A DNA stretch of 64,000 bases, from NCBI GenBank assembly GCA_963790445.1, contig CAWBON010000016.1, positions 37,501 through 101,500 of the forward strand, given 5' to 3'. The position numbers and the translations under genes were made by a program. Below the pieces are notes generated by a model. The model was not told the origin of the DNA. It saw only the letters and a list, made by a program, of their open reading frames with translations, and searched no databases. The stretch comes from an uncultured Alphaproteobacteria bacterium (GTDB taxonomy: Bacteria; Pseudomonadota; Alphaproteobacteria; Acetobacterales; Acetobacteraceae). Each line of letters opens with the position of its first letter. The first letter of the stretch is position 1. Shown piece after piece: positions 2,191 through 48,417 of this stretch.

Positions 2191-2764
2191 CTAACGCGCG
2201 GCTTTGTGGTACTCGCGGTTCGGCATCATGTCGGTGGCCGAGGCCATGCGGTTCGATAGGTTGAAGAACGCAATGGTCTCGGAGAGATCGAAGATGTCCT
2301 GGCTGGACAGGCCGACGTCGCGCAGCGTGCTGCGATCCGCGTCATCGATCAGCCAGGGCGTTGTGGTGAGCTTCCACGTGTAGTCCAGCATCGCGCGCTG
2401 GCGCGGATCGAGCTTCGCGACGCGATAGTTCAAAGCCATCATCTCGCCGAGTTCCGCATCGCCCGACAGTGCGCGTACCGCGGCACCATGCGCGACCAGG
2501 CAATAGTAGCAGCGGTTGGCCGATGACACGACGACGGCGACCATCTCGCGTTCCAGTTTCGACAGCCCGGAGGCCGCGAGCATGATCTCGTTATACATCG
2601 CCATGAAGTTGCGCAGCCTGCGCGGGTTCAGGCTGTAGGCACTGAACACATTCGGCACGAAGCCAAGCTTGTCGACGCATTTCTGCCAGATGATTTTCAG
2701 GTCGCTCGTCCAGCGTGGCCGGATCGGGAACGCCCAGCTTGGAGATGTGGTCAGGCTGCGGCAT
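2191..2764 (-). CDS. carboxymuconolactone decarboxylase/AhpD-like peroxidase-related protein (frameshifted)
   Basis: 'SSANRCYYCLVAHGAAVR' CxxC motif typical of AhpD/CMD. The N-terminus 'MPQPDHISKLGVPDPATLDE' is in another frame, with the break near 2700. Confidence 0.75.
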
Positions 2765-2872
2765 GGCTGTTGGATCCTTTACAGGAACGGTCCGATTTAC
2801 ACCTGCCTTCCCTTGCGGGCTTGAGCCGCCAAGCGGATCAAGGTTGGGATGGCGGAGCAAATCGGGGCGACG

Positions 2873-3857
2873 TCATTCCAGCACTTCCTGGTTGATCACG
2901 TTGTCGCGGTTCGGCTGACCATCGAGCACGCTCAGGATGTTCTCGGCCGTCACCACCGCCATGCCGGCAACCGACTCCGTCGTGACTCCCGCCATGTGCG
3001 GCGACGTGATCACCTGTGTCGAGCTGCAACAGCGTGTTGTTGACCGGCGTCGGCTCCATGTCGAACACATCGAGACCCGCACCGGCGAGATGCCCGGACG
3101 TCAGCGCGCCATGCAATGCCGGTTCATCGATAATTCCGCCGCGCGCCGTGTTGACGATGAATGCGCCGCGCTTCATGCGAGCCAGGCGTGCGGCATTGAA
3201 CATGCCCCACGGTCTCCGGGATTCTTCGGGCAGTGCACCGACACGAAATCCGCGCGCGGCAATGCAGCATCCAGATCCGTCACCCGTTCGCAGCCCGCCG
3301 CGGTGATCTTCTCCGCCGGCACATACGGATCGTAGATCAGCACGTTCATGTCGAAGCCCTGGCAACGCCGCGCGGACCGCGTGCCGATGCGGCCGAAACC
3401 GACGATCAGCACAGTCTTGCCGGACAGCTCCATCGGCAGCCCGCTGTGACGGTCGGCCCAGGTGCCCTTGCGCACCATCGCATCCAGCGCCGGCGTCCGC
3501 TTCGCGAGCGCCATCATCAGATGGAACGCATGCTCGGCCACCGAGGTCGAATTGGCGCTGCCGGCGACCATCAGCGGCACGTGCCGCGCGGTCAGCGCCG
3601 GCACCTCCACCGCGTCGTAGCCCACGCCGATGCGCGCGACGACCTGCATCGCAGGCGACGCATCCATCTCGGTCTGCTTGTATGGCGTACCGGACAGCGC
3701 GATGCCGGCAGCGTCCGACAAGCATCGGCAGCAACTCCGCCTGCTTGATGCCGGCGGGATAGATCACCACCTCGATGTCGTCGCGGCGGCGCATCACATC
3801 GACGCCTTCCTTGCCCATCGTGTGCGGCAGCAGGACCTTCTTGCGGTTCGAAGCCAT
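2873..3857 (-). CDS. D-isomer-specific 2-hydroxyacid dehydrogenase family protein (frameshifted)
   Basis: Stitched from 3 frames: '[17 protein letters not shown]', '[17 protein letters not shown]' (NAD fold), '[17 protein letters not shown]...AGLDVF', '[13 protein letters not shown]'. Confidence 0.8.
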
Positions 3858-3871
3858 CGTGATGTGTGTCC

Positions 3872-4634
3872 TCAGAGTTTGCGTTGCAGGTTGGCGACGT
3901 AGGTGCGGTTATGCGTCGGCGCCAGCATCACCTCGCTCATCACCACATGCTTCGGCAGGCAGGCGATGTAGCGGATCAGGTCGCCGCAATCCTCCGACTG
4001 CACCATGCGCGCGCGCTCTTCCGCACCCACCGGATTGGGACGCTTGTCGAGGATCGGCGTCGCAACCTCGCCGGGCAGGAACACGGTGGAGCGGATGCCG
4101 TTGACGCATTCCTCCATGTTGATGGTGTGGCTCATCGCCACCACGCCATGCTTCGCCGCGCCATAGATCGGCCCCGAGAAGCCGCCAATGAAGCGGCCGG
4201 CCATCGAGGCGGTGTGGATCAGCACGCCATCCTTCTGCGCGCGCATGAACGGCAGCGCCACGGTGACGCAATACAGCGCCTGCGACAGATTGCCGTGCAC
4301 CATTTCGTCGATGCCCTCCGGCGTGAGTTTGTCCCAATGCCGATCGCGAATGTTGATGCCGGCGTTGTTCACCAGGATGTCGAGCCGGCCCAGCGTGTCC
4401 TTGATGAATTCGCCGATCTTCTGCACCTGCTTCGAATTCGTCAGATCGGCCGGCTGCACATACGCCGTGCCGCCTTGCTGATGGATGCGCGCTGCCACGC
4501 CCTCCAACGGTTCGCGGCGTCGTCCGGTAAGAACGGTGGTGGCGCCCTTCCTCGGCCAGGGCCAGCGCGGCGGCTTCTCCTATGCCGCTTCCCGCGCCGG
4601 TGATCCAGGCAATCTTACCCGCGAGCCTCGGCAT
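3872..4634 (-). CDS. SDR family oxidoreductase (frameshifted)
   Basis: N-terminus '[30 protein letters not shown]' (TGxxxGxG) in one frame, remainder ('LVNNAGI', 'YGAAKHGV') in ORF 3872-4507. Break near 4520. Confidence 0.8.
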
Positions 4635-4773
4635 GAATATTTCCTCCGTGTTGCGAACTTGCGTGGGCGCCATTGAACGTGTTTGCCTGTGGCGGGGCAA
4701 GGGAGGAGCGCCGCGATGGCAACGGTACCTGAGCGATGCCGGCGAAATAACAGTCGCCGCGACAAACGGGATT

Positions 4774-5796
4774 ATGGCTGTCGGCCGGGGACGCTGCGCA
4801 GCGCAACCGGTTGGACGCTGAAACCGGAGGGCATGTGCCAGGCCGAACTCTGCGTGCCATTGCCGGCAACCGCCGTGCAGCGGCGATCGCGTCGACGTGG
4901 CGGCGTTCTGGCAATTGCTCGATCGGCCGGTGGTGCGTGACACTGTCGGCGAAACCTGGGTGCTCGGCGCGGGCGCTGATGAACGCAACAACGCGCTCGG
5001 CCGGGTTGATCGCGCCGGATTTCACGCTGCCTGATCTTGCCGGCGTGCCGCACACGTCTGTCCGCTTTGCGCGGGAACAAGGTCTTCCTCAGTACCTGGG
5101 CCTCCTGGTGAGGCTGTCGCTTTGACTTGCCCGTGTGGCAGCAACTGTTCGACAGCCTGAAGTCCGAAAAATTCATGATCGTGGCAGTGGCGGAGGAAAG
5201 CCGCGGTGCGGAGCATGCGCGGCAGTGGATCGAGCAGGCTGACGCGAAGTACTGGTGCCTGATCGATGAGGATCATCGCGTCGCCGATCTGTACGGCATG
5301 GTCAACGTGCCGCAGGCGGTGTGGATCGATGAGACGGGGCGCATCGTGCGGCCGCCGGAAACCGCGGGCTCAACCGATCATTTTCGGCTGATGGACCGCA
5401 CCACGCGCACGCTCGCGCCCGAGCATCAGGCGGCCCGACAGGATGCGCGCACGGCGTATCTGGATGCGGTGCGCGAGTGGGTGCTGACCGGCCGGTATCG
5501 CGCTGCCGAGTGACGCGGCTCGCCGGATGTTGCCGCGCATCACGCCAGAGATCGCGCTCGCACAGGCGCATTTTCGCCTGGGCGTTTGGCTGCGCCGGCA
5601 TGGCAAGACCGGCGAGGGCGACGCGCATCTGGCGGAAGCCAGCCGGCTGCATCCGGACTCATGGAACATCTGGCGCCAGGCCGCCGATCTGGACGAGGTC
5701 GGCAAGGCAAGCGGCGAAGCGTTCTGGCTGCGCGTGCAGGCGCTGGGCGACCGGCCGTACTATCCGCCGCCAGAACTGCCGCATTCCGACACCTGA
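4774..5796 (+). CDS. TlpA/ResA-like thioredoxin-fold protein with in-frame TGA (selenocysteine candidate, motif WASW-U-GC); several frameshifts; start uncertain
   Basis: Stitched: 'GWTLKPEGMCQAELCVPLP' / 'DRVDVAAFWQLLDRPVVRDTVGETWVLGAGADERNNAL' / 'GLIAPDFTLPDLAGVPHT' / 'LSALRGNKVFLSTWASW[TGA 5109-5111]GCRFDLPVWQQLF...' / tail 'MLPRITPEIALAQAHFRLG...'. The TGA is in frame with ORF 5127-5513. Confidence 0.6.
5112..5157 (+). other. putative bacterial SECIS-like stem-loop immediately 3' of TGA 5109-5111
   Basis: GGCTGTCG (5112-5119) pairs perfectly with CGACAGCC (5150-5157). Inner helix TTGCC/GGCAG (5127-5131/5137-5141) has apical loop CGTGT at 5132-5136. Confidence 0.45.
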
Positions 5797-5814
5797 TCCC
5801 GGGAGCCAACATCA

Positions 5815-6627
5815 ATGGCAACCACCGATTCCGCGTTCGCCGGTTCGATTCCCGCGCTGTACGATCGGCACCTCGGGCCAGTCATGTTCGAGCCCTATGC
5901 AACGGACCTGGTTCGCCGACTGCCAAAGCTCGGCGATGGCGCGATCCTGGAAATTGCCGCCGGCACCGGCATTGTCACGCAGCAGCTGGCGGCCGCATTG
6001 CCGGCGGCGGTTCGCATCGTCGCCACCGATCTCAACCAGCCGATGCTGGACCATGCGGCGAGCAAGCCCGGCATGACGCGCGTGACGTTCCGCCAGGCCA
6101 ATGCGCTCGCATTGCCGTTCATGGCCGCGATGAGTTCGATGTCGTCGTGTGCCAGTTCGGCGTGATGTTCTTTCCCGACCGCGTAGCGGCCTACCGGGAG
6201 GCGCTCCGCGTGCTGAAGCCGGGCGGACAGTTCGTGTTGAACGTCTGGGATACGCTTCCGCTAAATCCGCTCGCTGAAGTTGCCAGCGATGCAGTGGCGG
6301 CCCGCTTCCCACGCGATCCACCGCAATTCCTCGTTCGCGTGCCTTACACATATAACGATGCCGCCGTGATACGTGCCGATCTGGCGGCGGCCGGATTTGC
6401 CAGCATCGCAATCGAGACGGTCGCCTTGACCGGCCGCGCCGCGTCGCATCGCGATCCCGCGATCGGCTTCTGCCAAGGTTCGCCAATGCGCAACGAGATC
6501 GAGGCGCGTGATCCCAACGGATTGCAGGCGGCCACCGATGCCGCAGCCGATGCGCTGGCCGCACGCTTTGGCACCGGCGCCATCGACGGCACCGATGCAG
6601 GCGAAAGTCATAACTGCATCGGCCTGA
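5815..6627 (+). CDS. class I SAM-dependent methyltransferase (frameshifted)
   Basis: '[15 protein letters not shown]' motif I, '[15 protein letters not shown]', '[12 protein letters not shown]'. Breaks near 6125 and 6590. The C-terminus '[10 protein letters not shown]' is recovered in a third frame. Confidence 0.8.
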
Positions 6628-6633
6628 CGTCGC

Positions 6634-7003
6634 CTATTTGCAGGGGAAGCGTTCGGCCAGGAAGTGCAGCAGTCCATCCACTGCTCCCTGCGTCCTATGC
6701 TCCGGCAATGCGCGCACCCAATTGACGAACTCGGCCAGCGTTGCGGTGCGGGTCGGCGCCGGGCTGGGGAAGCAGAACGGCTTCTTGTCGCCGGCGTGAC
6801 GCAGCTCGACGTCAACGGCGCCCTGCGCGAAGCCGTGGCAGTAGTTGATCTTGGCGTCGCCCTGCGGATCCTTCGGATTGGCGCCGCACAGATCGGCGAG
6901 ATCGCCCGCCGTGCGCACATGGATGTCCAGGGCGCGCTGCGCCTGTGCCGGCAGCGCGAAGCAGGATGGCAGCGAGGGCGACGATCGGGGCGACGGATTT
7001 CAT
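6634..7003 (-). CDS. exported Rap1a/Tai-like (immunity-protein-fold) protein (frameshifted)
   Basis: Signal peptide '[15 protein letters not shown]' in ORF 6812-7003. Body 'GDLADLCG...[12 protein letters not shown]...PFCFPSP...ERFPCK' has the Cys pattern I associate with Rap1a/Tai4-type domains. Assignment is from memory only. Confidence 0.5.
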
Positions 7004-7760
7004 GCATTCTCTCCTGGCGGCAAGGGTGTGCCGATTGAAGCCGACCCGGCGCCGTCGCGCCAGCGCTGCCAGCCGGCGGCGCGCAGCTCGCAGGCTGGGC
7101 AGGTGCCGCAGCCGTAGCCCCAGTCGTGGCGATGCGTGCGGTCGCCGAGATAGCAGCTATGGGTTTCGCGTCCGGATCAGTTCCACCAGCGCGTCGCCGC
7201 CGAGCGCGTGCGGCCAGCGCCCAGGTGGCGGCCTTGTCGCGCCACATCAGCGGCGTCTCCAGCACGAAGCGGCGCTGCATGCCGAGGTTGAGCGCGAGCT
7301 GCATCGCCTTGATCGTGTCGTCGCGGCAGTCGGGATAGCCGGAGTAGTCGGTCTCGCACATGCCCGCGACGATGCGACGCAGGCCGCGGCGATACGCCAG
7401 CGCGCCGGCGCAGGTGAAGAACAGCAGGTTTCGCCCGGGGACGAAGGTGTTGGGCAGGCCCTCCGCGGTCATCGCGATCGCGGTGTCGCTGGTCAGCGCG
7501 GTGGAACCCAGCGCGGCTAGGGTCGTCGGACAGATCGACCATGTGGTCGGGGCCGAGCCGGCCGGGCCACAGCGGCGGCCAACGCGTCGCGGACCGGCGC
7601 GCGGCACTCCAGCTCCACCGCGTGCCGCTGGCCGTAGGCAAAGCCGACGGTCTCGACATGCGGGTAGCGGTGCCAGCGCCCAGGCCAGGCACGTCGTGCT
7701 GTCCTGCCCGCCGGAGAACAGCACCAAGGCGTGGTCAGGATTTTCCGGCGTTGTCGGCAT
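7000..7760 (-). CDS. queC: 7-cyano-7-deazaguanine synthase QueC (multiple frameshifts)
   Basis: '[19 protein letters not shown]' PP-loop, '[17 protein letters not shown]', '[12 protein letters not shown]', '[21 protein letters not shown]', C-terminal Zn motif '[13 protein letters not shown]'. Pieces lie in 3 frames. Confidence 0.85.
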
Positions 7761-7815
7761 GGGCGTTCGGGGTTTTGGTTTGGTCCAAGGCAGGTCATAC
7801 GATCCGGCACGATGG

Positions 7816-8052
7816 CTAGAAAGCCATCAGCTCGATGCGCGGCAGGAAATCCTGCGAGCGGTTCCAGTCGGGTTTCGCGTGCTTTTCCATGAGGCCTGTA
7901 ACGAGCAGACATCTGGTTGCCCCGTCGTCCACCAGCGCAATGCTACCGAACAGGGTCACGCTGCGATAGGCCAAGTGGTCATGCTCCAGAAGCCTCCAGC
8001 AGATGCGACAGGGACATCGCCAGGTCGGTCCGGCGCGCGATGGGCACGTCAT
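7816..8052 (-). CDS. hypothetical small protein (tail resembles the C-terminus of PNPOx-like FMN-binding proteins); start/frame uncertain
   Basis: Tail '[36 protein letters not shown]' looks protein-like. The N-terminal part of this frame is Cys/Arg/Trp-rich and probably out of frame. Confidence 0.25.
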
Positions 8053-10895: not shown

Positions 10896-11840
10896 TCAAT
10901 GGTACCGACGCAGAATCAGGCTCATCGGCCAGTCACGATTGTGCTCCTCCACCAGCACGCTCACCGTCGTCCGTTCCTCCCACGCTTCGCGCACCAGCAC
11001 CTCGATGGCGTGCTCGCGTCCGCGGAACCGATGCTCGTGCCCCGCTTCGGTCAGGATCACAAACCCGCAGAAGTCGCCGAAGCGATCGTAGTGTATGGCC
11101 ACCACTTTTCCGGTGTACTCGTGTTCCTTGACCGGCGGGAACGGCGGTGGCGGCTCGTGATGCACTGGGTGTTTGCCGGGCACGTTGCCGACCTGCGATG
11201 GTGGGATTGCGCCGGGGTCCTGTCCGAGGCTCAGCACGAGGCCCTCCGTCAACATAAGATACCGCTGAAGCACGGGCAGCCAGCGGTTGTTTGGCGGAGT
11301 GACTCCGATGCGCCATTTCAACCACGCCAGCAGCCGCTCCTGCGGATAGAGCAGCTCCTGTCCGGGCGTCACGGTGACGGTATATTGGAATGCACCCAGG
11401 ACCTGACGCCAGGAGAATGTCGTCCCCTTCCCGATGCTCTCGGCGACACGGGTCGCAACTTCGATAACCGGTGGCGGCGGTTCGGATCGAACCGTGGCGC
11501 TCACCAGCGTGAGCTGGCGCACGGCGATCGAGTAGGCGTCACGCTGTTTGACCGCCGGCGGCAGATCCACCGCCAGCAACCCTGCATATCGTCCCAGACC
11601 TTGCGGGATCGGAACCAGCGTCACGTCCCCGACGGGACACTGGATCGTGTGTACATCGATCGCGCTCAGGAGGTGCTTTACGTACATTTTGTCTGCCAGC
11701 GCGATGATCTCGGCTGCGGCGACGGCGGGCAGATAAATGGTGCCGATACCGCCCCGGGGTGTTTTGCCCCAGGTGATCATCAGTTCGTCCGCAGGCTGCG
11801 TGGCAGCCGACGCCTTGATCTCGAACGGGTGCGCGATCAT
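10896..11840 (-). CDS. hypothetical protein, downstream partner of the large orphan protein
   Basis: Intact 314-aa ORF. Its ATG overlaps the upstream stop (ATGA at 11837-11840). C-terminal module 'VVAIHYDRFGDFCGFVILTEAGHEHRFRGREHAIEVLVREAWEERTTVSVLV'. No family recognised. Confidence 0.7.
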   Translation of the reverse strand: MIAHPFEIKASAATQPADELMITWGKTPRGGIGTIYLPAVAAAEIIALADKMYVKHLLSAIDVHTIQCPVGDVTLVPIPQGLGRYAGLLAVDLPPAVKQRDAYSIAVRQLTLVSATVRSEPPPPVIEVATRVAESIGKGTTFSWRQVLGAFQYTVTVTPGQELLYPQERLLAWLKWRIGVTPPNNRWLPVLQRYLMLTEGLVLSLGQDPGAIPPSQVGNVPGKHPVHHEPPPPFPPVKEHEYTGKVVAIHYDRFGDFCGFVILTEAGHEHRFRGREHAIEVLVREAWEERTTVSVLVEEHNRDWPMSLILRRYH

Positions 11841-14004
11841 GGCTGAACCCCTAGCCAGGCGATGTTTCGTTGCGCGAGCTTGTCGGTCGTGGCCGTGGTC
11901 GCGCCGTTCGGTATGGGCGTATCATCGAAACGGATCTCTGCGATCAGGCACTGGTGCGGAGCGGCAGCCACCACGCCGTTGAGCGACTCGGTCCCGCTCC
12001 ATGGCCCATCCCATTGCGACTGCAGGAACGGCGGCGTCGGGATCAGGAACGGCGTCGTCTGGTTCACATCGAGCCAACAACCGAAATACGTATCGACTTC
12101 CGTGCCGGGCACGGTCGTGATCATCACCGCGTTCGGCGGGTCCGTTTGCGTCTTCATGTCGGCGGGCGATGTCAGATTGACCCGGTCGGTCGCAAAACAG
12201 GGCACTGTGATGTACTCGGAGCCGAAACCAAGGAAGCCCTCTTGAACACCCAGCAAGGCGATCTTGTGTCCGGGTGTGCCGTTCGGTACCCCATCGATAA
12301 GTACCCGCGCCTGTGCCGACGTCGGTAAAGTTCGAGACTGTGCTCGCGGCACTGAACAGGCGAAAGAAAACCCGGACGGGGCCGACCGTGGTGGTGATGC
12401 CGGACTTGAGCCTGACGCGCGCCACAGCGAAGTTGAAGGCAGGGACAAACGATTCGTCGTTCGGAAAGAACACGATCGCCGACCCTTCCTCGTCCTGCGT
12501 CAGTGCGTTGTCGAACGTGTCGCCATTGGTGATCTGGCTGGGATTGTTGAGATTGTTAAGGACCTGACGGATGTAGGGGATGGCGCCACTGGCGTCCGTC
12601 GGGTTTGGTACGCTGAACATCTGGTGCGGCTGATCGGACGCGACGGTGAAAATCCGCAGGTCGAAACTGAGCCACGTCGGATAGGATGTCGGATTTGCCG
12701 GGTTCAGGTTGAACAGATACGGATCCTCGCCTTTCGCCAGTTCGATATTCGCCTGGCAGCTCACCGGCACAGCGGTCGTCGTAATGTTGTTGTTCGAGTC
12801 GATACCGGTCGGGACTTGCACCGTCAGGTTGGCAGTCAACGTCACGATCGCGACCTGATGCGCGTTGAGCGCGTTCAAGGCGTTCTGGTTGGGAAAGGAA
12901 ATGGTGAACGGGTACAGGAATGTCTGGAAGTTCAGGTTGAGCGTATCATCGATCGCCAGCACCGGCGGTGGGCCGAACGTATTCACCACAGGCAGATTGC
13001 CCGAGATCGTCGCGACCTGGGTGGCCGTCAGGCCGGGATTTAAAGCCGGGTTAAACGTGGCGGCGACCGTTGGCAGGGGACTGGGATTTGCGTTGGACAG
13101 ATTTGGCGGCGAGTTGAAACCCAGTGCGGAGTTGGGGAAACCGTTGACCGCCAGCCAGAACGCCGATCCCCATGTCGGGTTCTGCGTCACTTCGTCCTGC
13201 CCGAACGTGGACTTGTCGAAGTTGAACGACATGTTCATCGCGGTGACGTACATGCTCTGGCTCACTGTCGAGCCAGTAGCTGGCGTCACGTCGCCATACA
13301 CCACATTGGAAGTCTCGCCTGTGCCGGGCTGCGGGCCGCCGCAAGCCGTGCTCGCGTCCTGTAAAGCAAGCGTACCCGGGGACACCGAGTAGGTCAGGGT
13401 GCCCGCGCCTGACGTGAACGTACACGGCGCAAGGCCACCGGGTCCGACAATGTCGAGTTGGAAGCCATAGATCGGATACGTGGCGCCCGTCGGGAATGTA
13501 AACGACGTGTTGGAAACATTGCCGCTGGGATCCGTGACGCTGAATGCCGCGCTGGTGACATTGCCGCTGGTATCAGTCGTAAGCTGAATTTGCATGACCG
13601 AGCCAGCCAGAATTTGGTTCGACGGCGCAGGGCCGAACGACTGGACCTGAAAGTCCTTGGATAGTACCCGGCAGCCATGGCGTCGTGTTCGGAGGATTTG
13701 GTGTGTACCCTGGCGGCCAAAGTTGGCCGGGTGCATAACTCGTCGCCCCGACTGCCCAGTACTGGATCTCCCAGCCAAGCTGGTTGTTCAGCGGCCCACC
13801 AACATAAATTATATACTGAAACCAATTGATGGACTGGTTCTGGCTCGTCGATCCCGGTTGAGGATACGAATTCAACTGCACCGAGAATCCGGTGTTCCCC
13901 ACAGTCACCATATCTTCCGTGACATTCAGGGTTACACTCAGGTTCTGCAGGTTCTGACAACTGTCAACGAGAATCGCGTTGTTGCTGCTGCTCAGGAAAC
14001 TCAT
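11837..14004 (-). CDS. large (~722 aa) Asn/Thr/Pro-rich hypothetical protein (2 frameshifts)
   Basis: Stitched from ORFs 13573-14004, 11922-13778 and 11837-12448 (breaks near 13670 and 12285). No signal peptide. C-terminus 'HQCLIAEIRFDDTPIPNGATTATTDKLAQRNIAW'. No family recognised. Confidence 0.7.
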
Positions 14005-16240: not shown

Positions 16241-17023
16241 ATGTCCATTCCGACATCGGTGCCACTGTTTCGCCTGCTGCTGTGCGGGATGCTTGTCGCG
16301 TCGTCCGCGGCCTTGGGCCAAACGATCCCCACCCCGCCAACCGGCACACTGCAATTGCCCCCGAAGCGGGCGACCACGCCCGCCAGGCCGCCGACCCCAA
16401 TCAAGACGGCGCCGCGCGAACCGGTGCATCGAGTCGAGCCGAAGTCACCACCAGTGGTGCGGCCACATGGCGCGCCACATGCACTGAAGCCACCACCGGC
16501 AAAGCCGACCACTGCCGTTCCCGCCGTCGCTCCGCCGAAGCCACCGGTTCCGGTCGAGCCACCAAAGCAACCCGAAGCCGAGAACAAGGGTTCCACCACC
16601 GGCCTGCCATTGCCGCGCTTCGTCGCATTGCGCACCGATGACGTGAACCTGCGCGCCGGGCCGGGCACGCGCTATCCGATCGAGTGGGTTTACAAGCGTC
16701 GGGAACTGCCAGTGGAGATCCTGCGCGAGTTCGAGGTCTGGCGCCTGGTGCAGGACGCGGACGGCATTAAGGGTTGGGTGCATCAGGCGACCATCACCGG
16801 CCGGCGCAGCTTCATCATCACCGGCGGCGACGCCACACTGCGGCACGAGGCGCAGGACAGTGCTGCGCCCGTGGCGATCCTGAAAGTCGGCGTCGTCGGG
16901 CATCTGCGTTCCTGCCAGGCGAACTCCGACTGGTGCCAGGTACAGGTCGATGACTACCGCGGCTTCCTCAAGCGCAGCCAGTTCTGGGGCACGCTGCCGG
17001 ACGAAGCAGTCGCTAACAACTAA
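16241..17023 (+). CDS. exported SH3b-domain protein with Pro-rich linker
   Basis: Signal peptide 'MSIPTSVPLFRLLLCGMLVASSAALG', Pro-rich spacer, then 'VNLRAGPGTRYPIEWVYKRRELPVEI...DGIKGWVH' and a second SH3-like half. Confidence 0.8.
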   Translation: MSIPTSVPLFRLLLCGMLVASSAALGQTIPTPPTGTLQLPPKRATTPARPPTPIKTAPREPVHRVEPKSPPVVRPHGAPHALKPPPAKPTTAVPAVAPPKPPVPVEPPKQPEAENKGSTTGLPLPRFVALRTDDVNLRAGPGTRYPIEWVYKRRELPVEILREFEVWRLVQDADGIKGWVHQATITGRRSFIITGGDATLRHEAQDSAAPVAILKVGVVGHLRSCQANSDWCQVQVDDYRGFLKRSQFWGTLPDEAVANN

Positions 17024-17174
17024 ATCGCCTGTCGGACGGACAAGCCGAGCGATTCCGGCGGATGTGTCCAATACCGGCGGAATGCGCTGCGCCGTTCCGC
17101 CGGGGCGGCGGTCCCGCGGACAGGCAAAGCTTCCGGCTTCCCAGCAGGTGCCTCGGTGCACTATCGTACGGCGC

Positions 17175-17483
17175 ATGGATAAGGACGTGCCGCGCGCCCA
17201 CCACGACATGGGAGGCGTTTCGAAATACCTGTGCGAGGCGGTGGATGTCGAGCCGCACGCGCTGACCGACTTCGACAAGGAGGTCGACGCGCTTGCTGCG
17301 GTGCTGAGGATGAAGCGCATGTTCACGGTGGACGAGATGCGCCGTGGCATCGAGGCGATTCCCGAGGCCGAGTACCACCGCCTTAGCTACTACCGCCGCT
17401 GGATCCGCTCGATCACCGACAATCTGCTGAAGCAGGGCGTGATCACCGAAGCGGAACTTCGCGCCGCGCTGGACCGCGTGTGA
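17175..17483 (+). CDS. nitrile hydratase beta-subunit N-terminal-half homologue (separate gene)
   Basis: 'HHDMGGV' and 'TVDEMRRGIEAIPEAEYHRLSYYRRWIRSITDNLLKQGVITEAEL' match the N-terminal half of NHase beta. The stop overlaps the next start (GTGTGATG). Confidence 0.75.
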   Translation: MDKDVPRAHHDMGGVSKYLCEAVDVEPHALTDFDKEVDALAAVLRMKRMFTVDEMRRGIEAIPEAEYHRLSYYRRWIRSITDNLLKQGVITEAELRAALDRV

Positions 17484-17767
17484 TGCCGGATTTCGCGGCC
17501 GGTGCGCGCGTGCGTGTCAGGAACGATTGGCCGGAGACGCATGGCCCGGTGCATATCCGCACGCCGCACTATCTGCGTGGCTTGCAGGGCACGGTGGTGC
17601 GGCAACTCGGCGTGTACCCCAACCCGGAGGACCTCGCGTTCGCGCGCCCGGCGGCCAGCCATCCATTGTATCACGTGGCATTCGACCAGCCCGCGGTGTG
17701 GCAGGAAGGCCAGGCGGGCGACGAACTGTTGGTTGAGATCTACCAACATTGGCTGGAACCGGCATGA
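17480..17767 (+). CDS. nitrile hydratase beta-subunit C-terminal (SH3-like) half homologue (separate gene)
   Basis: 'GARVRVRNDWPETHGPVHIRTPHYLRGLQGTVVRQLGVYPNPEDLAF...LYHVAFD...LLVEIYQHWLEP' matches the C-terminal half of NHase beta. ATGA overlap with the alpha gene. Confidence 0.75.
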   Translation: MMPDFAAGARVRVRNDWPETHGPVHIRTPHYLRGLQGTVVRQLGVYPNPEDLAFARPAASHPLYHVAFDQPAVWQEGQAGDELLVEIYQHWLEPA

Positions 17768-18351
17768 ACATCCTGGAAGCCGACAGCGAGAAGCTGCTGA
17801 CCGCGGTGCGCGATCTGCTCGCGGCGAAAGGCGTGGTCTCCAATGCGGAAATCTCTGAGCGGATCGCAATCACCGATGCCGCCAATCCCGGCCAGGGTGC
17901 GCGCATGGTGGCGAAGGCATGGACCGATTCGGCGTACCGCGCACTGATGCTGGCGGACGGCGCCAAGGCAGCCGAGGAACTAGGCATTCCGATGCGCGGC
18001 GCGCCGCCGCTCGGCGTGCTGGAGAATACTGCCGAGGTGCACAACCTGGTGGTTTGCACGCTGTGCAGTTGCTATCCGCGCGCGGTACTGGGCTACCCGC
18101 CGTTCTGGTTCAAATCCGCCGCCTATCGCGCGCGCGGGGTGCGTGACCCGCGCGGATTGCTGACCGAATGGGGCACGGTTCTGCCTGCCGGCGTGAAGAT
18201 CCGCGTCGTTGATTCCACCGCCGATTATCGCTGGATGGTGCTGCCTGCGCGTCCCGCGGGCACGGAAGGTTGGAGTGAGGCACAGCTCGCGGCGATCGTG
18301 CGCGAAGGCGACATGATCGGCGTCACAATCCCGGTGCTGCCAGCACATTGA
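17764..18351 (+). CDS. nitrile hydratase alpha-subunit family protein (Co-type VCTLCSC motif)
   Basis: 'HNLVVCTLCSCYPRAVLGYPPFWFKSAAYRAR'. CTLCSC is the metal-binding claw, and Thr at position 2 is the cobalt-type signature. Confidence 0.85.
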   Translation: MNILEADSEKLLTAVRDLLAAKGVVSNAEISERIAITDAANPGQGARMVAKAWTDSAYRALMLADGAKAAEELGIPMRGAPPLGVLENTAEVHNLVVCTLCSCYPRAVLGYPPFWFKSAAYRARGVRDPRGLLTEWGTVLPAGVKIRVVDSTADYRWMVLPARPAGTEGWSEAQLAAIVREGDMIGVTIPVLPAH

Positions 18352-19303
18352 CCGACCGGCTCGGGGAGTATCGCTCCACCAGATAAAGCGGCCGGTGTTT
18401 GGTTTCGTTGAAGACGCGGCCGAGATATTCGCCGATGATGCCGAGTGTGACGAGTTGCGTGCCGCCGAGGAACAGGATCACCGCCATCAGGCTGGGATAG
18501 CCGGCGACCGGATTGCCGAACATCAGCGTGCGCAGGATCAACTGCGCGCCGAACAGCACCGCGAAGATGGCGACGACGAGGCCGAGATAAGTCGCCAGCT
18601 TCAACGGGCCGACACTGAAGCTGGTGATGCCCTCGATCGCGAAGTTCCATAGCTTCCATAGCGACCACTTGGTGGCGCCGGCGCCGCGTGGCTCGCGGTC
18701 GTAGAGGATCGCGGTACTGGGAAATCCGACCCAGGCAAACAGGCCTTTCATGAAGCGATGGTGCTCGCGCAACTGCTGCACGGCATCCACCACGCGACGG
18801 CTCATCAGGCGGAAATCGCCGACATTCGGTGGCAGCGGCACTTCGCCGACGTTGCGCATGATGCGGTAGAATGCCGCGGCGGTGCGTTTCTTCAGCCACG
18901 TGTCGCCCTGGCGCAGGCGACGCTGGGCGTAGACCATATCGTGGCCGGCACGCCACGCAGCAACCAGCCGGGGAATCACCTCCGGCGGGTCTTGCAGGTC
19001 GGCGTCGATCACGATGACCGCATCGCCGCATGCGTGATCGAGGCCGGCCGTGGTGGCGATTTCCTTGCCGAAATTGCGCGACAGGTTGACCAGCGCGATG
19101 TGGCTATCGGCAAGCCGCAATGCTTCGACGACGCGCAGGGTGGTGTCGCGACTGCCGTCGTTGACGTAGATGACTTCCCACGGCGCATCCAGCGTCGCCA
19201 TGGCCGCGGCCAGGCGCCGGTGCATGTCGCCGATGATCTCGGCTTCGTTGAACATCGGCACGACGACCGAGAACACCGGCCGCGTTTGCGACTGCGTGTC
19301 CAT
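18323..19303 (-). CDS. family 2 glycosyltransferase (GtrB/polyprenyl-phosphate glycosyltransferase-like)
   Basis: Intact 326 aa. 'FSVVVPMFNE', 'VIYVNDGSRD', 'VIVIDADLQDPPE', two C-terminal TM helices. Confidence 0.85.
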   Translation of the reverse strand: MDTQSQTRPVFSVVVPMFNEAEIIGDMHRRLAAAMATLDAPWEVIYVNDGSRDTTLRVVEALRLADSHIALVNLSRNFGKEIATTAGLDHACGDAVIVIDADLQDPPEVIPRLVAAWRAGHDMVYAQRRLRQGDTWLKKRTAAAFYRIMRNVGEVPLPPNVGDFRLMSRRVVDAVQQLREHHRFMKGLFAWVGFPSTAILYDREPRGAGATKWSLWKLWNFAIEGITSFSVGPLKLATYLGLVVAIFAVLFGAQLILRTLMFGNPVAGYPSLMAVILFLGGTQLVTLGIIGEYLGRVFNETKHRPLYLVERYSPSRSVNVLAAPGL

Positions 19304-23674: not shown

Positions 23675-24742
23675 TCAAATGCGCACGTCGGCAATCGGCG
23701 CTGCGATCTGCTCGAACGTGCATTGCCTGGGCGCCTTGTCGTCGCGCCAACGCAGCAGCTTCGTGCCGTGGCGAAAGCGATCGCCGGTGACGTGGTCGAA
23801 GCGAACCTCCACCACGAGCTCCGGTCGTAGTGGTTCCCATTCACTGCTGCGTTCCGTGCTCCACCGGCTGGGCCCACCGGGCGCCTTGCCGGTGAAACCC
23901 GGCTTCCCGCGCAGAGCCTCCAGCCTGCGTGTCAGGCGGGGCCGCTCTGCATCGGTGATCGTGGAAGTAAACCCCACGTGATCGAGTTTCCCGGCATCGT
24001 CATACAGTCCCAGCAGCAGGGAGCCGACTTCGCGACTGTCGCTCCGGTAGCGAAAGCCACCGACGACACAGTCCGCGGTTTGCAGCCGCTTGACCTTGAT
24101 CATCGTCCGCTCGCCCGGCGTGTACGGATCCGCCAGGCGCTTCGCGATCACACCATCGGTTGCGCCATGTCCGGCATCGATCAGCCATTTCTCGGCCCGC
24201 TTCCGATCGCGCGTCGCGGGTGAAATCAGCAGCTTCTTCGCCACCGTTACCCGAGCAATGAACGCTTCAAGTTCCGCACGCCGCCGCTCGAGCGGTTGGT
24301 CCACCAGACTCGCGCCATCGGTTCCGACGAGCATGTCGAACACGATCAGCCGGGCGGGCGTTGCCGCTGCGAGTTTCCTGATGCGGCTCTCGGCAGGATG
24401 CAGTCGCATCTGAAGTGCATCGAATGCCAGATGCCCTTCCAGCTCGACGACGAGTTCGCCATCGATCACGAACCGCGGCTCGGGCACGTCGCGCAACAGC
24501 GCCACGACTTCAGGAAAATACCGTCCCAGCGGCTTGCCCGATTTGGCGCGGAGCTCAACGTTTGTGCCGGACTTGAAGGCGAGACAACGAAATCCGTCCC
24601 ACTTTGGCTCGTACTGCCAGGCAGCGTCGGCGGCAGGAATTGTCGCGACTGCGCGCGATTCCATTGGTGGGGTGTCCAATGGCAGATCGAAGGGCGGCCG
24701 ATCGACGGGCGGGCGATCGAGAAGCGGGCGATCGCGAGGCAT
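23675..24742 (-). CDS. ATP-dependent DNA ligase (LigD ligase-domain type, stand-alone)
   Basis: Motif I 'YEPKWDGFRCLAF', 'IDGELVV', 'DGVIAKR', OB-fold tail 'EVRFDHVTGDRFRHGTKLLRWRDDK'. Confidence 0.85.
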   Translation of the reverse strand: MPRDRPLLDRPPVDRPPFDLPLDTPPMESRAVATIPAADAAWQYEPKWDGFRCLAFKSGTNVELRAKSGKPLGRYFPEVVALLRDVPEPRFVIDGELVVELEGHLAFDALQMRLHPAESRIRKLAAATPARLIVFDMLVGTDGASLVDQPLERRRAELEAFIARVTVAKKLLISPATRDRKRAEKWLIDAGHGATDGVIAKRLADPYTPGERTMIKVKRLQTADCVVGGFRYRSDSREVGSLLLGLYDDAGKLDHVGFTSTITDAERPRLTRRLEALRGKPGFTGKAPGGPSRWSTERSSEWEPLRPELVVEVRFDHVTGDRFRHGTKLLRWRDDKAPRQCTFEQIAAPIADVRI

Positions 24743-24748
24743 CCCTGC

Positions 24749-25537
24749 TTAGCCCGCTTTGCGGCGCGCGGTTTCCTTCCGGGCGACCGGCCTTTTGGTG
24801 ACAGCGGGCATCGGCTTGCTGAGCCCGGGCTTGCGCTTCTTGCGCTCCTCGGCGGCATCCCCCCTGTTGCTGTTCCACACCGCGTCCGCCTTGGTCGCCG
24901 CGGTTCCAGCTTCCATGAACGGCTTCGGCGCGCGTCCCTTGCCGGCGGCGATCGAAGTCATGCTACGGCCCGACGCAACCGACCGATCATCGGCGAGGAT
25001 GGCCTCGCCATCGCCCTCGCGCGCGTATTCATCGCGGTGCTTGATCAGCAGCCAGTTGGTGCGTTTGCCACCCAACCTGTCGTGCTTCATGCGCACCAGC
25101 ACCCAACCACCGTGTAGGCGCTTGCCGTCCAGTATGAACTTGAAGTCGCCATCGGCCAGCGCGTCCTGCGGCGACATCTCGCCGGCGGGTTCCCAGTATC
25201 CGCGGTCCCAAAGCTGCACTGTGCCGCCGCCATACTGACCCTTCGGGATGGTTCCCTCGAAGTCGCCATAGTCGAGCGGGTGATCCTCCACCTCGACCGC
25301 CAGCCGCTTGTCATGCGGATCGAGCGACGGACCCCGCGTCACCGCCCAGGACTTGAACACGCCGTCGAGTTCCAGCCGCAGGTCGTAGTGCAGACGCGTG
25401 GCCGCATGCTTCTGGATGACGAAGCGCCGGCGTTCGGCGGGGGCGGCTTTGGGTTCGCCACTCGGCTCCGGGGTTTTGGTGAAGTCGCGCTTCGCCCGGT
25501 ATTTTGCGAGTTTGTCAGGGGTGTTGATGGAAGTCAT
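24749..25537 (-). CDS. LigD 3'-phosphoesterase (PE) domain protein, stand-alone
   Basis: 'RFVIQKHAATRLHYDLRLELDGVFKSWAVTRGPSLDP...EVEDHPLDYGDFEGTIPKGQYGGG'. Confidence 0.85.
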   Translation of the reverse strand: MTSINTPDKLAKYRAKRDFTKTPEPSGEPKAAPAERRRFVIQKHAATRLHYDLRLELDGVFKSWAVTRGPSLDPHDKRLAVEVEDHPLDYGDFEGTIPKGQYGGGTVQLWDRGYWEPAGEMSPQDALADGDFKFILDGKRLHGGWVLVRMKHDRLGGKRTNWLLIKHRDEYAREGDGEAILADDRSVASGRSMTSIAAGKGRAPKPFMEAGTAATKADAVWNSNRGDAAEERKKRKPGLSKPMPAVTKRPVARKETARRKAG

Positions 25538-25823
25538 CGGGTGGCCTCTTGCGCTCGATCCGAGCGGTTAAGTGGGCACTGATAACGTTGCGAACCACAG
25601 TGGGGTTCGACGGTCCTGCCGCGCTTCTTGCCGGCGGGGCACGATGAGACGGGCAGATCGATGGTCGCGGCGCTGCGCGGCTATATATGCGGGTGGAGGC
25701 GCAGGGCGTTGCAATCCATGGTGAGCGAGGAGCGGAGCGGGGTGGCTGTGCCATGCAGTCAGCCGGCATCGCGGGGCCAGCCAAGTCCTGGTCCCGTGTG
25801 CAACGGTTCGGCCGGCGGTGGAT

Positions 25824-41615: not shown

Positions 41616-41936
41616 GTGATGTCCTGTGCAGCAGTCAGGCATGTTCTGGAAATGATCACGGCCGCACAGATGCGGGCGGCGCGCGCCATGCTCGGAATCG
41701 ACCAGCGGGCGCTGGCTGAACGCTCCGGCCTGTCCCTGCCGACCATCCAGCGCATGGAGGCGAGCGACGGCGTGGTGCGCGGCAATGTCGATTCGCTGAT
41801 GAAGCTGGTCGATGCGCTGCAGGCGGCAGGGATCGAGTTGATCGCCGACAATGCCGTCAGTGGCCAGGGCGGCCGAGGAGTGCGGCTGAGCAAACCCGCT
41901 CCGACACCGCGCCGTGCCGGGTCGGGCCGCGCATGA
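41616..41936 (+). CDS. XRE-family helix-turn-helix transcriptional regulator
   Basis: 'ITAAQMRAARAMLGIDQRALAERSGLSLPTIQRMEASDG'. The stop overlaps the hyfB-like start (ATGA at 41933-41936). Confidence 0.75.
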   Translation: MMSCAAVRHVLEMITAAQMRAARAMLGIDQRALAERSGLSLPTIQRMEASDGVVRGNVDSLMKLVDALQAAGIELIADNAVSGQGGRGVRLSKPAPTPRRAGSGRA

Positions 41937-43933
41937 TCTCGCTCGTTCTGGTCTGCATCCTGCTGCTGCTCGGTCTCGGTATCGCCGGCGCACGCCTCGC
42001 GCACACGCCATCGGGAAACAACATCGTCTATGGCGGCAGCCTCGGCGTCTCATGCATATCGCTGCTGATCGCGCTGCTATCCCTTGCCGCAACACCATCG
42101 ACCATAACACTACCACTCGGCCTGCCATGGATCGGCGCGCATTTCCGCCTCGACTCTCTCGCCGCGTTCTTCCTTTTCGTTGTCGGCCTCGGTAGCGCCG
42201 GCGCAAGCCTCTACGCTCTCGGCTACGGCGCACACGAACCCGAACCGCAACGCGTCTTGCCATTCTATCCGATATTCCTCGCCGGTCTGAACATCGTCGT
42301 CCTGGCCGACGATGCCTTCAGCTTCCTGTTCGCATGGGAACTGATGTCGCTCGCCTCCTGGGCACTCGTGATGTCGCACGATCGCGAGCCCGGCAACGCG
42401 CACGCCGGCTTGGTTTACATCATCATGGCGAGCTTCTCCGGCCTCGCCCTGCTGCTGTGCTTCGGCCTGCTCGCGGGACCAACCGGCAGCTACGACTTCG
42501 CCGCGATGCGCGCCGTGCATCCGACACCCGGTCTCGCTGCCATCGCATTGGTGCTCGCATTGATCGGGGCCGGATCGAAGGCCGGCGTGGTACCGTTGCA
42601 CGCTTGGCTGCCGCTCGCGCATCCCGCCGCGCCAAGCCACGTCTCCGCACTCATGAGCGGCGTGATGACCAAGGTCGCCGTCTACGGCTTCATCCGCATC
42701 GCCTTCGACCTGATAGGCGCACCTACTGCGTGGTCCGGCATCCTCGTGCTGGCGGTCGGCGGCATCACCGCGGTGATGGGCGTGCTGTACGCGCTGATGG
42801 AGCACGACCTGAAGCGCCTGCTCGCCTACCACACCGTCGAAAACATCGGCATCATCTTCATCGGCCTCGGCCTGGCAATCGCATTCGGCGCCAACGGACT
42901 TGCGGCCGCCGCCGCACTCGGACTGACCGCCGCGCTGTTCCACGTGTTCAACCATTCGGTGTTCAAGAGCCTGCTGTTCTTCGGCACCGGCGCCGTGCTC
43001 ACCGCGACAGGCGAGCGCGACATGGATCATCTCGGCGGCCTGATCCATCGCATGCCGAAAACCGCATTTGCATTTCTTGTAGGCTGCGTCGCGATCTCCG
43101 CGCTGCCGCCACTGAACGGCTTCGTGTCCGAGTGGCTGACCTTCCAGGCGATCCTGCTTCACCCCAACCTGCCGCAATGGGGCCTGAAGATCGCCATCCC
43201 CGCGGATGGCGCGCTGCTAGCACTGTCCGCCGCGCTTGCCGCCGCCTGCTTCGTCAAGGCGTACGGCGTAACCTTTCTCGGTCGGCCACGCACACGCGCA
43301 GCGATAGATGCGCACGAGGTCGACCGCTGCTCGCTTGCCGCCATGTACGCGTTCGCCGCGCTCTGCCTGCTGGCAGGCATCTTCCCCGGCGTAGTGATCG
43401 ACCTGCTAGTGCCAGTGGTGCACACGCTGACCGGCGCACGAATGCCGACACAACTCGGCGTTGCGTGGCTGTCCATCGTGCCGGTTGCCAGTGCACGCAG
43501 TTCGTACAACGGGCTTCTGGTACTGCTCTTCATCGCTGCATCGGCCTCGCTGGCGGTGCTGGTCATTCACCGCTTTGCCTCACGCGCAATGCGGCGTGCA
43601 CCGGCATGGGATTGCGGCTTCCCGGATGCGCGCCCGGAAACGCAGTATACCGGCGGCAGCTTCGCCCAGCCGATCCGCCGGGTTTACGGCGCGGTCGTGT
43701 TCCGCACGCACGAGACAGTGACAATGCCGCCGCCGGGCGATATCGCGCCCGCGCGCATCGAGAAGCACTTCAGCGACGTGATCTGGGATGTGTTCTACGC
43801 ACCGATCGCCGGCGCAATCTGGCGCGCGTCCGAGATACTGAACCACCTGCAATTCCTCACCATACGACGCTATCTGGGCTTCGTCTTCGCCGCACTGATA
43901 ATCCTGCTGTTCGCGTTGGCGCTATGGCAGTGA
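41933..43933 (+). CDS. hyfB: hydrogenase-4 component B-like antiporter subunit (NuoL/HyfB family)
   Basis: Intact 666 aa, polytopic. 'FLFAWELMSLASWALV', 'GSKAGVVPLHAWLPLAHPAAPSHVSALMSGVMTKVAVYG'. Confidence 0.85.
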   Translation: MISLVLVCILLLLGLGIAGARLAHTPSGNNIVYGGSLGVSCISLLIALLSLAATPSTITLPLGLPWIGAHFRLDSLAAFFLFVVGLGSAGASLYALGYGAHEPEPQRVLPFYPIFLAGLNIVVLADDAFSFLFAWELMSLASWALVMSHDREPGNAHAGLVYIIMASFSGLALLLCFGLLAGPTGSYDFAAMRAVHPTPGLAAIALVLALIGAGSKAGVVPLHAWLPLAHPAAPSHVSALMSGVMTKVAVYGFIRIAFDLIGAPTAWSGILVLAVGGITAVMGVLYALMEHDLKRLLAYHTVENIGIIFIGLGLAIAFGANGLAAAAALGLTAALFHVFNHSVFKSLLFFGTGAVLTATGERDMDHLGGLIHRMPKTAFAFLVGCVAISALPPLNGFVSEWLTFQAILLHPNLPQWGLKIAIPADGALLALSAALAAACFVKAYGVTFLGRPRTRAAIDAHEVDRCSLAAMYAFAALCLLAGIFPGVVIDLLVPVVHTLTGARMPTQLGVAWLSIVPVASARSSYNGLLVLLFIAASASLAVLVIHRFASRAMRRAPAWDCGFPDARPETQYTGGSFAQPIRRVYGAVVFRTHETVTMPPPGDIAPARIEKHFSDVIWDVFYAPIAGAIWRASEILNHLQFLTIRRYLGFVFAALIILLFALALWQ

Positions 43934-44862
43934 TCCAGGGTCTTCTCGTGCAGGGCGCGCAGATGGCGCTGGTGCTACTGCTCGCGCCGCTGCTGACCGG
44001 CCTGGTGCGCAAGGTGAAGGCGCGCCTGCAACGTCGCCGCGGTGCATCGCTGATCCAGCCCTATCGCGACCTCAAGCGCCTGCTCGGCAAGGAAGTGGTG
44101 CTTGCGGAAAACGCATCGTGGCTATTCCGCACTGCACCTTATGTGATCTTCGCGGTCACCTGGGTGGCCGCCGCACTGGTGCCAACCTTCGCCACCGGCT
44201 TGCTGTTCAACTGGTCCGGCGACCTGATCGCCATCACCGCCCTGCTCGGCAGCGCGCGCTTCGCCCAGGCACTCGCCGCAATGGACATCGGCACCAGCTT
44301 CGGTGGCATCGGTGCCTCACGTGAGGTGATGATCGCCTCGCTCGCCGAACCCGCCATGCTGATGATCGCACTGACTGTCGCGCTGGTCGCCGGCTCCACG
44401 CAACTCTCCACCATCGCGGACTACATGGCCTTCTCCGCCGTCGGCCTCCGCGTATCGCTGGCACTCGGCTTGGTCGCGCTGATCATCGTCGCGCTGGCCG
44501 AGAACGCGCGTATTCCGGTCGACAACCCCGCCACGCACCTGGAACTCACCATGGTGCACGAGGCGATGGTGCTGGAATACTCCGGCCGGCATCTGGCGAT
44601 GATCGAACTCGCCGCGGCGCTGAAGCTGCTGCTGTACATTTCAGTCATCGCCTGCATCTTCTGCCCCGTCGGACTCGCCCATGGCTATGCAATCGGCTTC
44701 GTCCTGTACCTGGTCAAGCTCGCCGCAGCCGGCGTGCTGCTCGGGGTTTTCGAGATGTCGATCGCCAAGATGCGCGTGTTCCGCGTGCCCAACTTCCTCG
44801 GCGCCGCGCTGATGCTGGGTCTGCTCGGCGTGCTGCTGCTGTTCGTATCGGAAGGCATGTGA
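43924..44862 (+). CDS. hyfC: NuoH/HyfC(HycD)-like membrane subunit
   Basis: 'LLAPLLTGLVRKVKARLQRRRGASLIQPYRDLKRLLGKE', 'LAENARIPVDNPATHLELTMVHEAMVLEYSG'. Confidence 0.85.
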   Translation: MAVIQGLLVQGAQMALVLLLAPLLTGLVRKVKARLQRRRGASLIQPYRDLKRLLGKEVVLAENASWLFRTAPYVIFAVTWVAAALVPTFATGLLFNWSGDLIAITALLGSARFAQALAAMDIGTSFGGIGASREVMIASLAEPAMLMIALTVALVAGSTQLSTIADYMAFSAVGLRVSLALGLVALIIVALAENARIPVDNPATHLELTMVHEAMVLEYSGRHLAMIELAAALKLLLYISVIACIFCPVGLAHGYAIGFVLYLVKLAAAGVLLGVFEMSIAKMRVFRVPNFLGAALMLGLLGVLLLFVSEGM

Positions 44863-48353: not shown

Positions 48354-48417
48354 TGCTCGACTGCGGGCTTCACCAGGCTTGTGCCAGCCGCGACGTTAGG
48401 GAAATGGCCGGTCGACA

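Follow-up and report, generated by a model that had tools for sequence, protein, structure and literature searches.

A TlpA/ResA-like gene with an in-frame TGA in an uncultured Acetobacteraceae bacterium very likely encodes a UGC-motif selenoprotein

Does an in-frame TGA at the redox motif of a thioredoxin-fold gene encode selenocysteine (Sec), or does it end the protein? We examined this question in a 64,000-nucleotide stretch of DNA from an uncultured member of the Acetobacteraceae (GenBank assembly GCA_963790445.1, contig CAWBON010000016.1, positions 37,501 to 101,500 of the forward strand), hereafter the window, whose numbering is used throughout. An original prediction, made from the letters of the window, had proposed a selenoprotein candidate in which a TGA replaces the first redox cysteine of a TlpA/ResA-like protein and is followed by a hairpin resembling a bacterial selenocysteine insertion sequence (SECIS). 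Our comparison with relatives supports this proposal through the TGA found in 67 of 67 related loci, the existence of cysteine homologues and the conservation of the SECIS-like hairpin at the RNA level. We consider it very likely that positions 4716 to 5796 of the forward strand encode a UGC-motif TlpA/ResA-like, or peroxiredoxin-like (Prx-like), selenoprotein.

Three-frame translation of positions 4500 to 6000 places the TGA at 5109-5111 in frame within W-A-S-W-TGA-G-C, as had been predicted. One frame spans the codon, reading LSALRGNKVFLSTWASW on its 5' side and GCRFDLPVWQQLF on its 3' side, with GCRFDLPVWQQLFDSLK downstream in the same frame. Comparison with relatives reveals no insertion or deletion (indel) between 5057 and 5496; the frame is therefore continuous across the TGA, the premise of the earlier argument that no indel can have produced the codon. 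HMMER aligns the TGA with the first Cys of the ResA CxxC motif (WASWCG-C versus WGTWCKPC), in agreement with the position originally assigned to it. Judged from this alignment, the codon takes the place of the nucleophilic first cysteine in a thioredoxin-fold active site whose motif is one residue shorter than CxxC. Over the 60 nt that surround the TGA, the window does not differ from its closest relative (L010), a short-read Acetobacteraceae metagenome-assembled genome that is 93.5% identical over the gene region and 95% identical over 3.6 kb. A substitution error at the TGA was ruled out by this exact match, and a reassignment of TGA in the genetic code was ruled out because the same gene terminates on TGA.

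A scan that took one genome for each bacterial species recovered 73 related loci, 67 of them covering the TGA site. No locus in it was more than 95% identical to the window; the source genome is therefore absent from these species representatives, and a search for an exact match to an intact window protein (18323-19303, minus strand) returned no record. In all 67 the TGA stands at exactly this codon, and the frame runs on unbroken to either side. The carriers belong to Acetobacteraceae, other Alphaproteobacteria, Rhodopila, Desertibaculum, Quisquiliibacterium, Burkholderiales, Rokubacteria, Methylomirabilota and SAR324. The Ser codon of W-A-S-W is AGT in two of the relatives (L025 and L026) and TCN in the others. 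The comparison proposed with the original prediction, namely whether Cys or Sec occupies this column in homologues, gives both answers: 22 full-length single-chain orthologues of about 360 aa, 63-76% identical and named "peroxiredoxin", read WASWCGC, with TGC or TGT at the TGA column, and about 100 further Cys forms were found in metagenomic sequences. By this alignment the TGA and Cys homologues form a classic Sec/Cys pair.

The hairpin proposed downstream of the codon is exact in its details. GGCTGTCG (5112-5119) and CGACAGCC (5150-5157) are exact reverse complements, the inner 5-bp helix carries a CGTGT loop 21-25 nt past the TGA, and the whole is the minimum free energy (MFE) structure returned by RNAfold. 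In the 61 distinct TGA-form sequences the five apical pairs form without exception, and the changes seen in the apical stem keep pairing (U.G to C-G and C-G to U.G). The loop reads CGUGU in 53 of these sequences and GGUCU in eight, its central GU being invariant. The pair beneath the apical helix is C-G in 16 cases, U-A in five and U.G in three, and is unpaired in the window's own clade. As for the lower-stem helix, 83% of cells are paired across relatives; it is well kept only in the window's Acetobacteraceae-like clade and differs elsewhere.

The codons and residues that build the apical stem behave differently in TGA and Cys forms. Among TGA forms, Leu is encoded only by NTG (TTG 38, CTG 23) and Gln only by CAG, whereas the same Leu codon in 60 metagenomic Cys forms is CTG 27, CTC 25, CTT 3, TTG 3 and CTA 2 times. 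Every TGA form has L-[P/S]-V-W-Q, including those whose overall identity is down to 50%, whereas this peptide is kept in just one of the 22 closer Cys orthologues. Ala, Val, Thr or Ile stands at the P/S position in 17 of those 22, and the 34-42 pair is impossible in these 17 because that codon starts with a G or an A, which cannot pair with the Trp codon, itself invariant. The five apical pairs are retained in only 12 of 77 Cys forms. The conservation of the apical stem is not accounted for by coding alone. The peptide appears to be fixed at L-[P/S]-V-W-Q because the SECIS stem lies within the coding sequence, which makes the locus a clean case of RNA structure constraining protein: pairing with the Trp codon permits only Pro or Ser at one position.

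One of these 12, the sequence L200 (ENA ERZ27279682 k141_475589, approximately positions 1400-1460), carries TGC at the column together with a complete hairpin, CUGCC-GGUCU-GGCAG, and LPVWQ. Here Cys seems to have replaced Sec recently, leaving the SECIS behind as a fossil.

The published model of bacterial SECIS elements allows a loop of 3-9 nt, a stem of 4-16 bp and a spacing of 16-37 nt, with a G in the first two loop positions and an MFE of at most -7.5 kcal/mol (PMC13188914). The window hairpin falls within every one of these constraints, with a 5-nt loop, a 5-bp upper stem, a G in the loop and -21.3 kcal/mol, and its spacing of 20-21 nt bears out the earlier statement that the distance from the TGA suits bacterial SECIS models. 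Rfam gave no SECIS or other RNA-family match over the window at the gathering threshold, nor on 5050-5250 at E <= 10; the element is evidently outside Rfam's models. Taken with the conservation described above, the TGA is very probably a real selenocysteine codon served by a recoding hairpin.

The protein also belongs to a named family. The original prediction had put forward the name "ResA-like WAxxUGC motif", and the name does exist: a rough frame-patched translation matches NCBIfam NF041054, "ResA-like WAxxUGC motif-containing protein" (WAxxUGC_long), with E = 1.4e-80. The repaired protein, with U written as C, scores 289.3 bits (E = 4.7e-86) over model positions 9-352 of 354. Eight TGA-carrying relatives, including Rhodopila globiformis, Desertibaculum subflavum and Quisquiliibacterium transsilvanicum, score 300.9-314.2 on the same model. 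Identity to orthologues over the C-terminal part compared reaches 76-78% (Rhodopila 76%, Desertibaculum 73%).

Several observations weigh against a selenoprotein here. The window's copy cannot be translated through as written, owing to seven frameshifts, and six of its seven insertions fall within 331 nt (4727-5057), where about 0.85 would be expected from the local rate. The stability of the hairpin is within chance (z = -1.30; 18 of 200 dinucleotide shuffles fold as well). The NF041054 score lies 11 bits under the curated cutoff of 300. No selA, selB, selD or tRNA-Sec was found in the 64-kb window or beside the gene in relatives, and a literature search found neither an experimental demonstration of selenium incorporation nor an assigned substrate for the family. 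The energy of the hairpin alone is unremarkable for a sequence of 65% G+C; as the z-score is not significant and Sec and Cys forms have the same mean energy, -20.4, over the 54 nt that start at the codon, energy provides no argument here, and the significance of the hairpin, as we read it, rests on its conservation across species. We regard the score as a near miss at the cutoff and not a sign of another family because orthology to members that pass is clear from identity and conserved synteny; the window protein is, by these measures, a near-threshold orthologue of NF041054 members and not a different family. Automatic pipelines will keep missing the gene because the repaired protein falls just below that cutoff.

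The frameshifts raise the possibility that the copy is a true pseudogene, its seven frameshifts real and its TGA and hairpin relics. The density of the defect speaks for this, with seven 1-nt insertions in 1.08 kb against about one per 390 nt in the flanks. The same insertion-only defect, however, also breaks the neighbouring 2-hydroxyacid dehydrogenase, short-chain dehydrogenase/reductase (SDR), methyltransferase and QueC genes. Over 2.2-8.0 kb (5.8 kb, up to seven relatives), we counted about 19 private single-base insertions against one private deletion, which agrees with the earlier view that indels are the dominant defect of the window, whereas natural bacterial gene decay is biased towards deletions. 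Once the gene is freed of insertions, 35 of its changes relative to L010 are synonymous and 10 nonsynonymous, a ratio of nonsynonymous to synonymous rates (dN/dS) of 0.086, with purifying selection on both sides of the TGA, and the 60 nt surrounding the codon match L010 exactly. Finally, in four independent long-read assemblies of a related population the neighbouring genes are fragmented on one contig and intact on three. Because the insertion-only defect hits every gene and purifying selection is strong, the seven insertions are most probably sequence errors, that is, technical noise and not decay, and we consider a pseudogene improbable. Readthrough of the UGA without selenocysteine, for instance by near-cognate insertion of Cys or Trp in a lineage devoid of Sec machinery, appears less probable still. 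What favours it is that searches of the window and of the relatives' loci found no Sec machinery. We searched the window by ARAGORN, Rfam, a Pfam scan and six-frame tblastn with E. coli SelA, SelB and SelD. ARAGORN found no tRNA-Sec in the window or in the loci of 60 relatives, the sole tRNA of the window being a tRNA-Gly; the Pfam scan, which took in about 18,000 residues translated from probable coding frames of the window, returned no sel genes; and tblastn, over the window and 1.19 Mb of relatives' loci, returned one weak match to a GTPase domain (L181). For Alphaproteobacteria, a selC gene nested within selB has been reported (PMC8124441). Yet such readthrough would give a SelB-type hairpin, conserved and with its G-U loop invariant, no cause to persist across phyla, the existing Cys forms simply use TGC or TGT, and the family is curated as a selenoprotein family (NF041054; PMC2398784; PMC13188914). 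That the host is Sec-competent we infer from the conservation of the codon and of its hairpin.

The least credible account is that the TGA is a real stop, whether through a nonsense mutation, a base-call error or a boundary between two genes. Gene callers do treat it so, cutting the locus into products of about 126 and 217 aa. The closest protein-database entries (81-93% identical) are only fragments of 211-225 aa, called "hypothetical protein", that start just past the TGA, much as the open reading frame (ORF) track of the window had been said to split the gene. Against a stop stand the identical TGA in all 67 species-level genomes and the purifying selection on either side of it. A division into two genes would cut through the active site of the thioredoxin fold, the Cys homologues consist of a single chain, and the downstream "start" shifts with the gene caller (L, M or V in LPVWQ, MPVWQ, VWQQ and MWQQ). 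On the selenoprotein reading, which we retain, these entries expose an annotation gap: the gene of this soil Acetobacteraceae-like clade is routinely split at its Sec codon and recorded as a hypothetical protein of 214-225 aa.

Table 1. Coordinates of the gene, its recoding elements, the window-specific insertions and the adjacent genes
Feature	Position (nt)	Strand	Basis or remark
Whole selenoprotein gene (putative)	4716-5796	+	357 codons after removing seven window-specific 1-nt insertions; L010 alignment, NF041054 match
Shine-Dalgarno-like AGGGAGGAG	4700-4708	+	7 nt 5' of start codon; direct sequence reading
Redox motif codons W-A-S-W-U-G-C	5097-5117	+	translation; motif in all 67 relatives
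In-frame TGA, read as selenocysteine	5109-5111	+	residue 130 of repaired protein; TGA in 67/67 related loci
SECIS-like hairpin, whole	5111-5158	+	minimum-energy fold, -21.3 kcal/mol (RNAfold)
Lower stem, 5' arm AGGCUGUCG	5111-5119	+	pairs with 5150-5158
Apical stem, 5' arm UUGCC (DNA TTGCC)	5127-5131	+	pairs with 5137-5141
Apical loop CGUGU (DNA CGTGT)	5132-5136	+	21-25 nt past UGA; G then U at loop positions 2-3
Apical stem, 3' arm GGCAG	5137-5141	+	invariant in all relatives
Lower stem, 3' arm CGACAGCCU	5150-5158	+	pairs with 5111-5119
ORF-track ORF, artefact	5127-5513	+	begins at internal TTG past TGA, ends at insertion-made stop
Terminal stop codon TGA	5794-5796	+	UGA an ordinary stop in the organism, recoded only at codon 130
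1-nt insertion, frame-shifting	4728 (+/-2 nt)	+	absent from L010 and six other relatives
1-nt insertion	4767 (+/-2 nt)	+	pairwise L010 alignment; not listed separately in multiple alignment
1-nt insertion	4800	+	window-specific versus L010/relatives
1-nt insertion	4881 (+/-2 nt)	+	window-specific versus L010/relatives
1-nt insertion	4998	+	window-specific versus L010/relatives
1-nt insertion	5056 (+/-1 nt)	+	window-specific versus L010/relatives
1-nt insertion	5497 (+/-2 nt)	+	creates false stop 5511-5513
Carboxymuconolactone decarboxylase/AhpD-like gene, C-Y-Y-C motif	2194-2778	-	adjacency to selenoprotein gene kept in L195-L197
2-hydroxyacid dehydrogenase	2838-3857		adjacency to selenoprotein gene kept in L195-L197
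SDR	3872-4635		adjacency to selenoprotein gene kept in L195-L197

The limits of the gene follow from the alignment of the window with L010, which sets the start codon at ATG 4716 and the stop at TGA 5794-5796 (Table 1). The span first proposed, 4774-5796, was right at its end and began 58 nt too far downstream. Near the N-terminus, L010 (2614-2628, opposite window 4739/4740) bears a 15-nt tandem duplication, GGGGAAATGACAGTC / GGCGAAATGACAGTC, that gives GEMTV twice; the window has one copy of the repeat, an in-frame natural length polymorphism. Private insertions recur about once per 300 nt throughout window positions 2200-8000, for example at 2705, 3016, 3204, 3218, 3720 and 4545, and further ones lie at 6588, 6961, 7169, 7208, 7574 and 7671, leaving nearly every gene frameshifted.

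The AlphaFold2 model of a Cys orthologue (P0001) was used to read the architecture of the protein, which has three parts: an N-terminal domain of about 110 aa with a conserved C-x4-C, the thioredoxin-fold domain with W-A-S-W-U-G-C, and a helical C-terminal domain of about 130 aa. The N-terminus, MATVLSDAGEITVAATKGLWLSAGD, has no hydrophobic stretch as judged by eye. The protein is probably cytoplasmic because no obvious signal peptide is present. In the mechanism that we propose, SelB.GTP.Sec-tRNA(Sec) would bind the apical loop while the ribosome stands at UGA-130 and selenocysteine would be inserted, after which translation would run on to the terminal stop. A selenenylsulfide would then couple Sec130 and Cys132 (U-G-C) as a redox pair where helix alpha-1 starts, at its N-terminus. 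Our best guess for the role of the protein is thiol/selenol-disulfide reductase activity or peroxide reduction. That the biochemistry of the family is new, as an uncharacterised selenium-dependent thiol/peroxide pathway of soil Acetobacteraceae built on a three-domain cytoplasmic redox protein, is conceivable, though we think it rather unlikely.

Synteny is kept in relatives, where the CMD/AhpD-like gene (CMD, carboxymuconolactone decarboxylase) is followed by the 2-hydroxyacid dehydrogenase, the SDR and the selenoprotein gene. The AhpD-like gene is a possible functional partner of the selenoprotein. Elsewhere in the window, positions 41720-48921 hold what looks like a gene cluster for a group-4 membrane-bound [NiFe] hydrogenase or a formate hydrogenlyase, made of two Proton_antipo_M subunits, a NuoC/HycE-like stretch and an Oxidored_q6 small subunit, its middle frameshifted; no formate dehydrogenase was seen in the 64 kb. 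The forward strand carries genes for the beta and alpha subunits of a nitrile hydratase (16884-18348). On the reverse strand lie a LigD-type ATP-dependent DNA ligase of non-homologous end-joining (23678-25567), whose 3'-phosphoesterase domain is encoded by the neighbouring ORF, a gene homologous to that of Rap1a, a type VI secretion immunity protein (6637-6999; Pfam PF18602, E = 2e-15) and two long ORFs of 341 and 621 aa without a Pfam match (10899-13787). Around these two ORFs the G+C content is lower (0.586 at 12-14 kb versus about 0.65 elsewhere), and the stretch may be acquired DNA.

How does this locus compare with known systems? By sequence and fold, ResA and TlpA are the closest solved structures (phmmer E = 5e-12), and the top Foldseek matches of the central domain are ResA, DsbE and TlpA, with TM-scores of 0.70-0.78 on the target. 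With the membrane-anchored oxidoreductases of the ResA/TlpA/CcmG type (PDB 1st9, 4nmu, 1jfu) the window protein shares the thioredoxin fold and the W-x-x-W-C context, and its predicted Sec is located where their nucleophilic Cys is. It differs from them in having the shorter U-G-C for C-x-x-C, with Sec for Cys, in its extra N- and C-terminal domains and in showing, as judged by eye, no hydrophobic N-terminal anchor. Its scores on the corresponding NCBIfam models lie far below their cutoffs (ResA 65.5 versus 170; TlpA 43.2 versus 230). Pfam PF00578 (AhpC-TSA) is matched at 57.5 bits, above its cutoff of 26, and Pfam Redoxin is matched too. The peroxidatic motif of peroxiredoxins is P-x-x-x-T-x-x-C/U (PMC13188914). 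Unlike these AhpC/TSA proteins, the window protein reads F-L-S-T-W-A-S-W-U, with Thr five and not three residues before U and no Pro at -7.

E. coli SelB needs a bulged U in its SECIS. We identified no equivalent of it in the window hairpin, which has no sequence similarity to the fdhF element of E. coli. What the hairpin shares with SECIS elements of the fdhF type and the bSECISearch consensus is its position directly 3' of the UGA inside the coding region, a 5-nt loop with G then U, a 5-bp upper stem, a spacing of 20-21 nt and an energy of -21 kcal/mol. The Cys orthologues named "peroxiredoxin" (P0001-P0024) are alike in their 63-76% full-length identity and three-part architecture; they differ in having TGC or TGT for TGA and, in most, a relaxed L-[P/S]-V-W-Q and hairpin (LAPWQ and others), although a few, L200 among them, retain a fossil hairpin.

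The nearest known system is the NF041054 family itself, with which the window protein has in common TGA as the U of W-A-S-W-U-G-C and the "long" architecture, a protein of about 355 aa. The term "WAxxUGC" occurs in no paper that the literature search returned, nor does the combination of selenocysteine, Acetobacteraceae and selD, and neither the BSepDB text nor Peng et al. 2016 mentions the family under any term tried. A 2008 survey of Global Ocean Sampling (GOS) sequences by Zhang and Gladyshev listed "Prx-like (UGC-containing)" (pfam00578, motif UGC), with 46 Sec sequences and 855 Cys homologues, commoner in non-marine samples (PMC2398784). From the motif and the domain assignment we infer that the literature names and NF041054 denote one family, treated as a selenoprotein family in both PMC2398784 and PMC13188914 and curated as such in NCBIfam. 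The gene described here belongs to a family of selenoproteins that has been on record since 2008, and represents no new kind of system.

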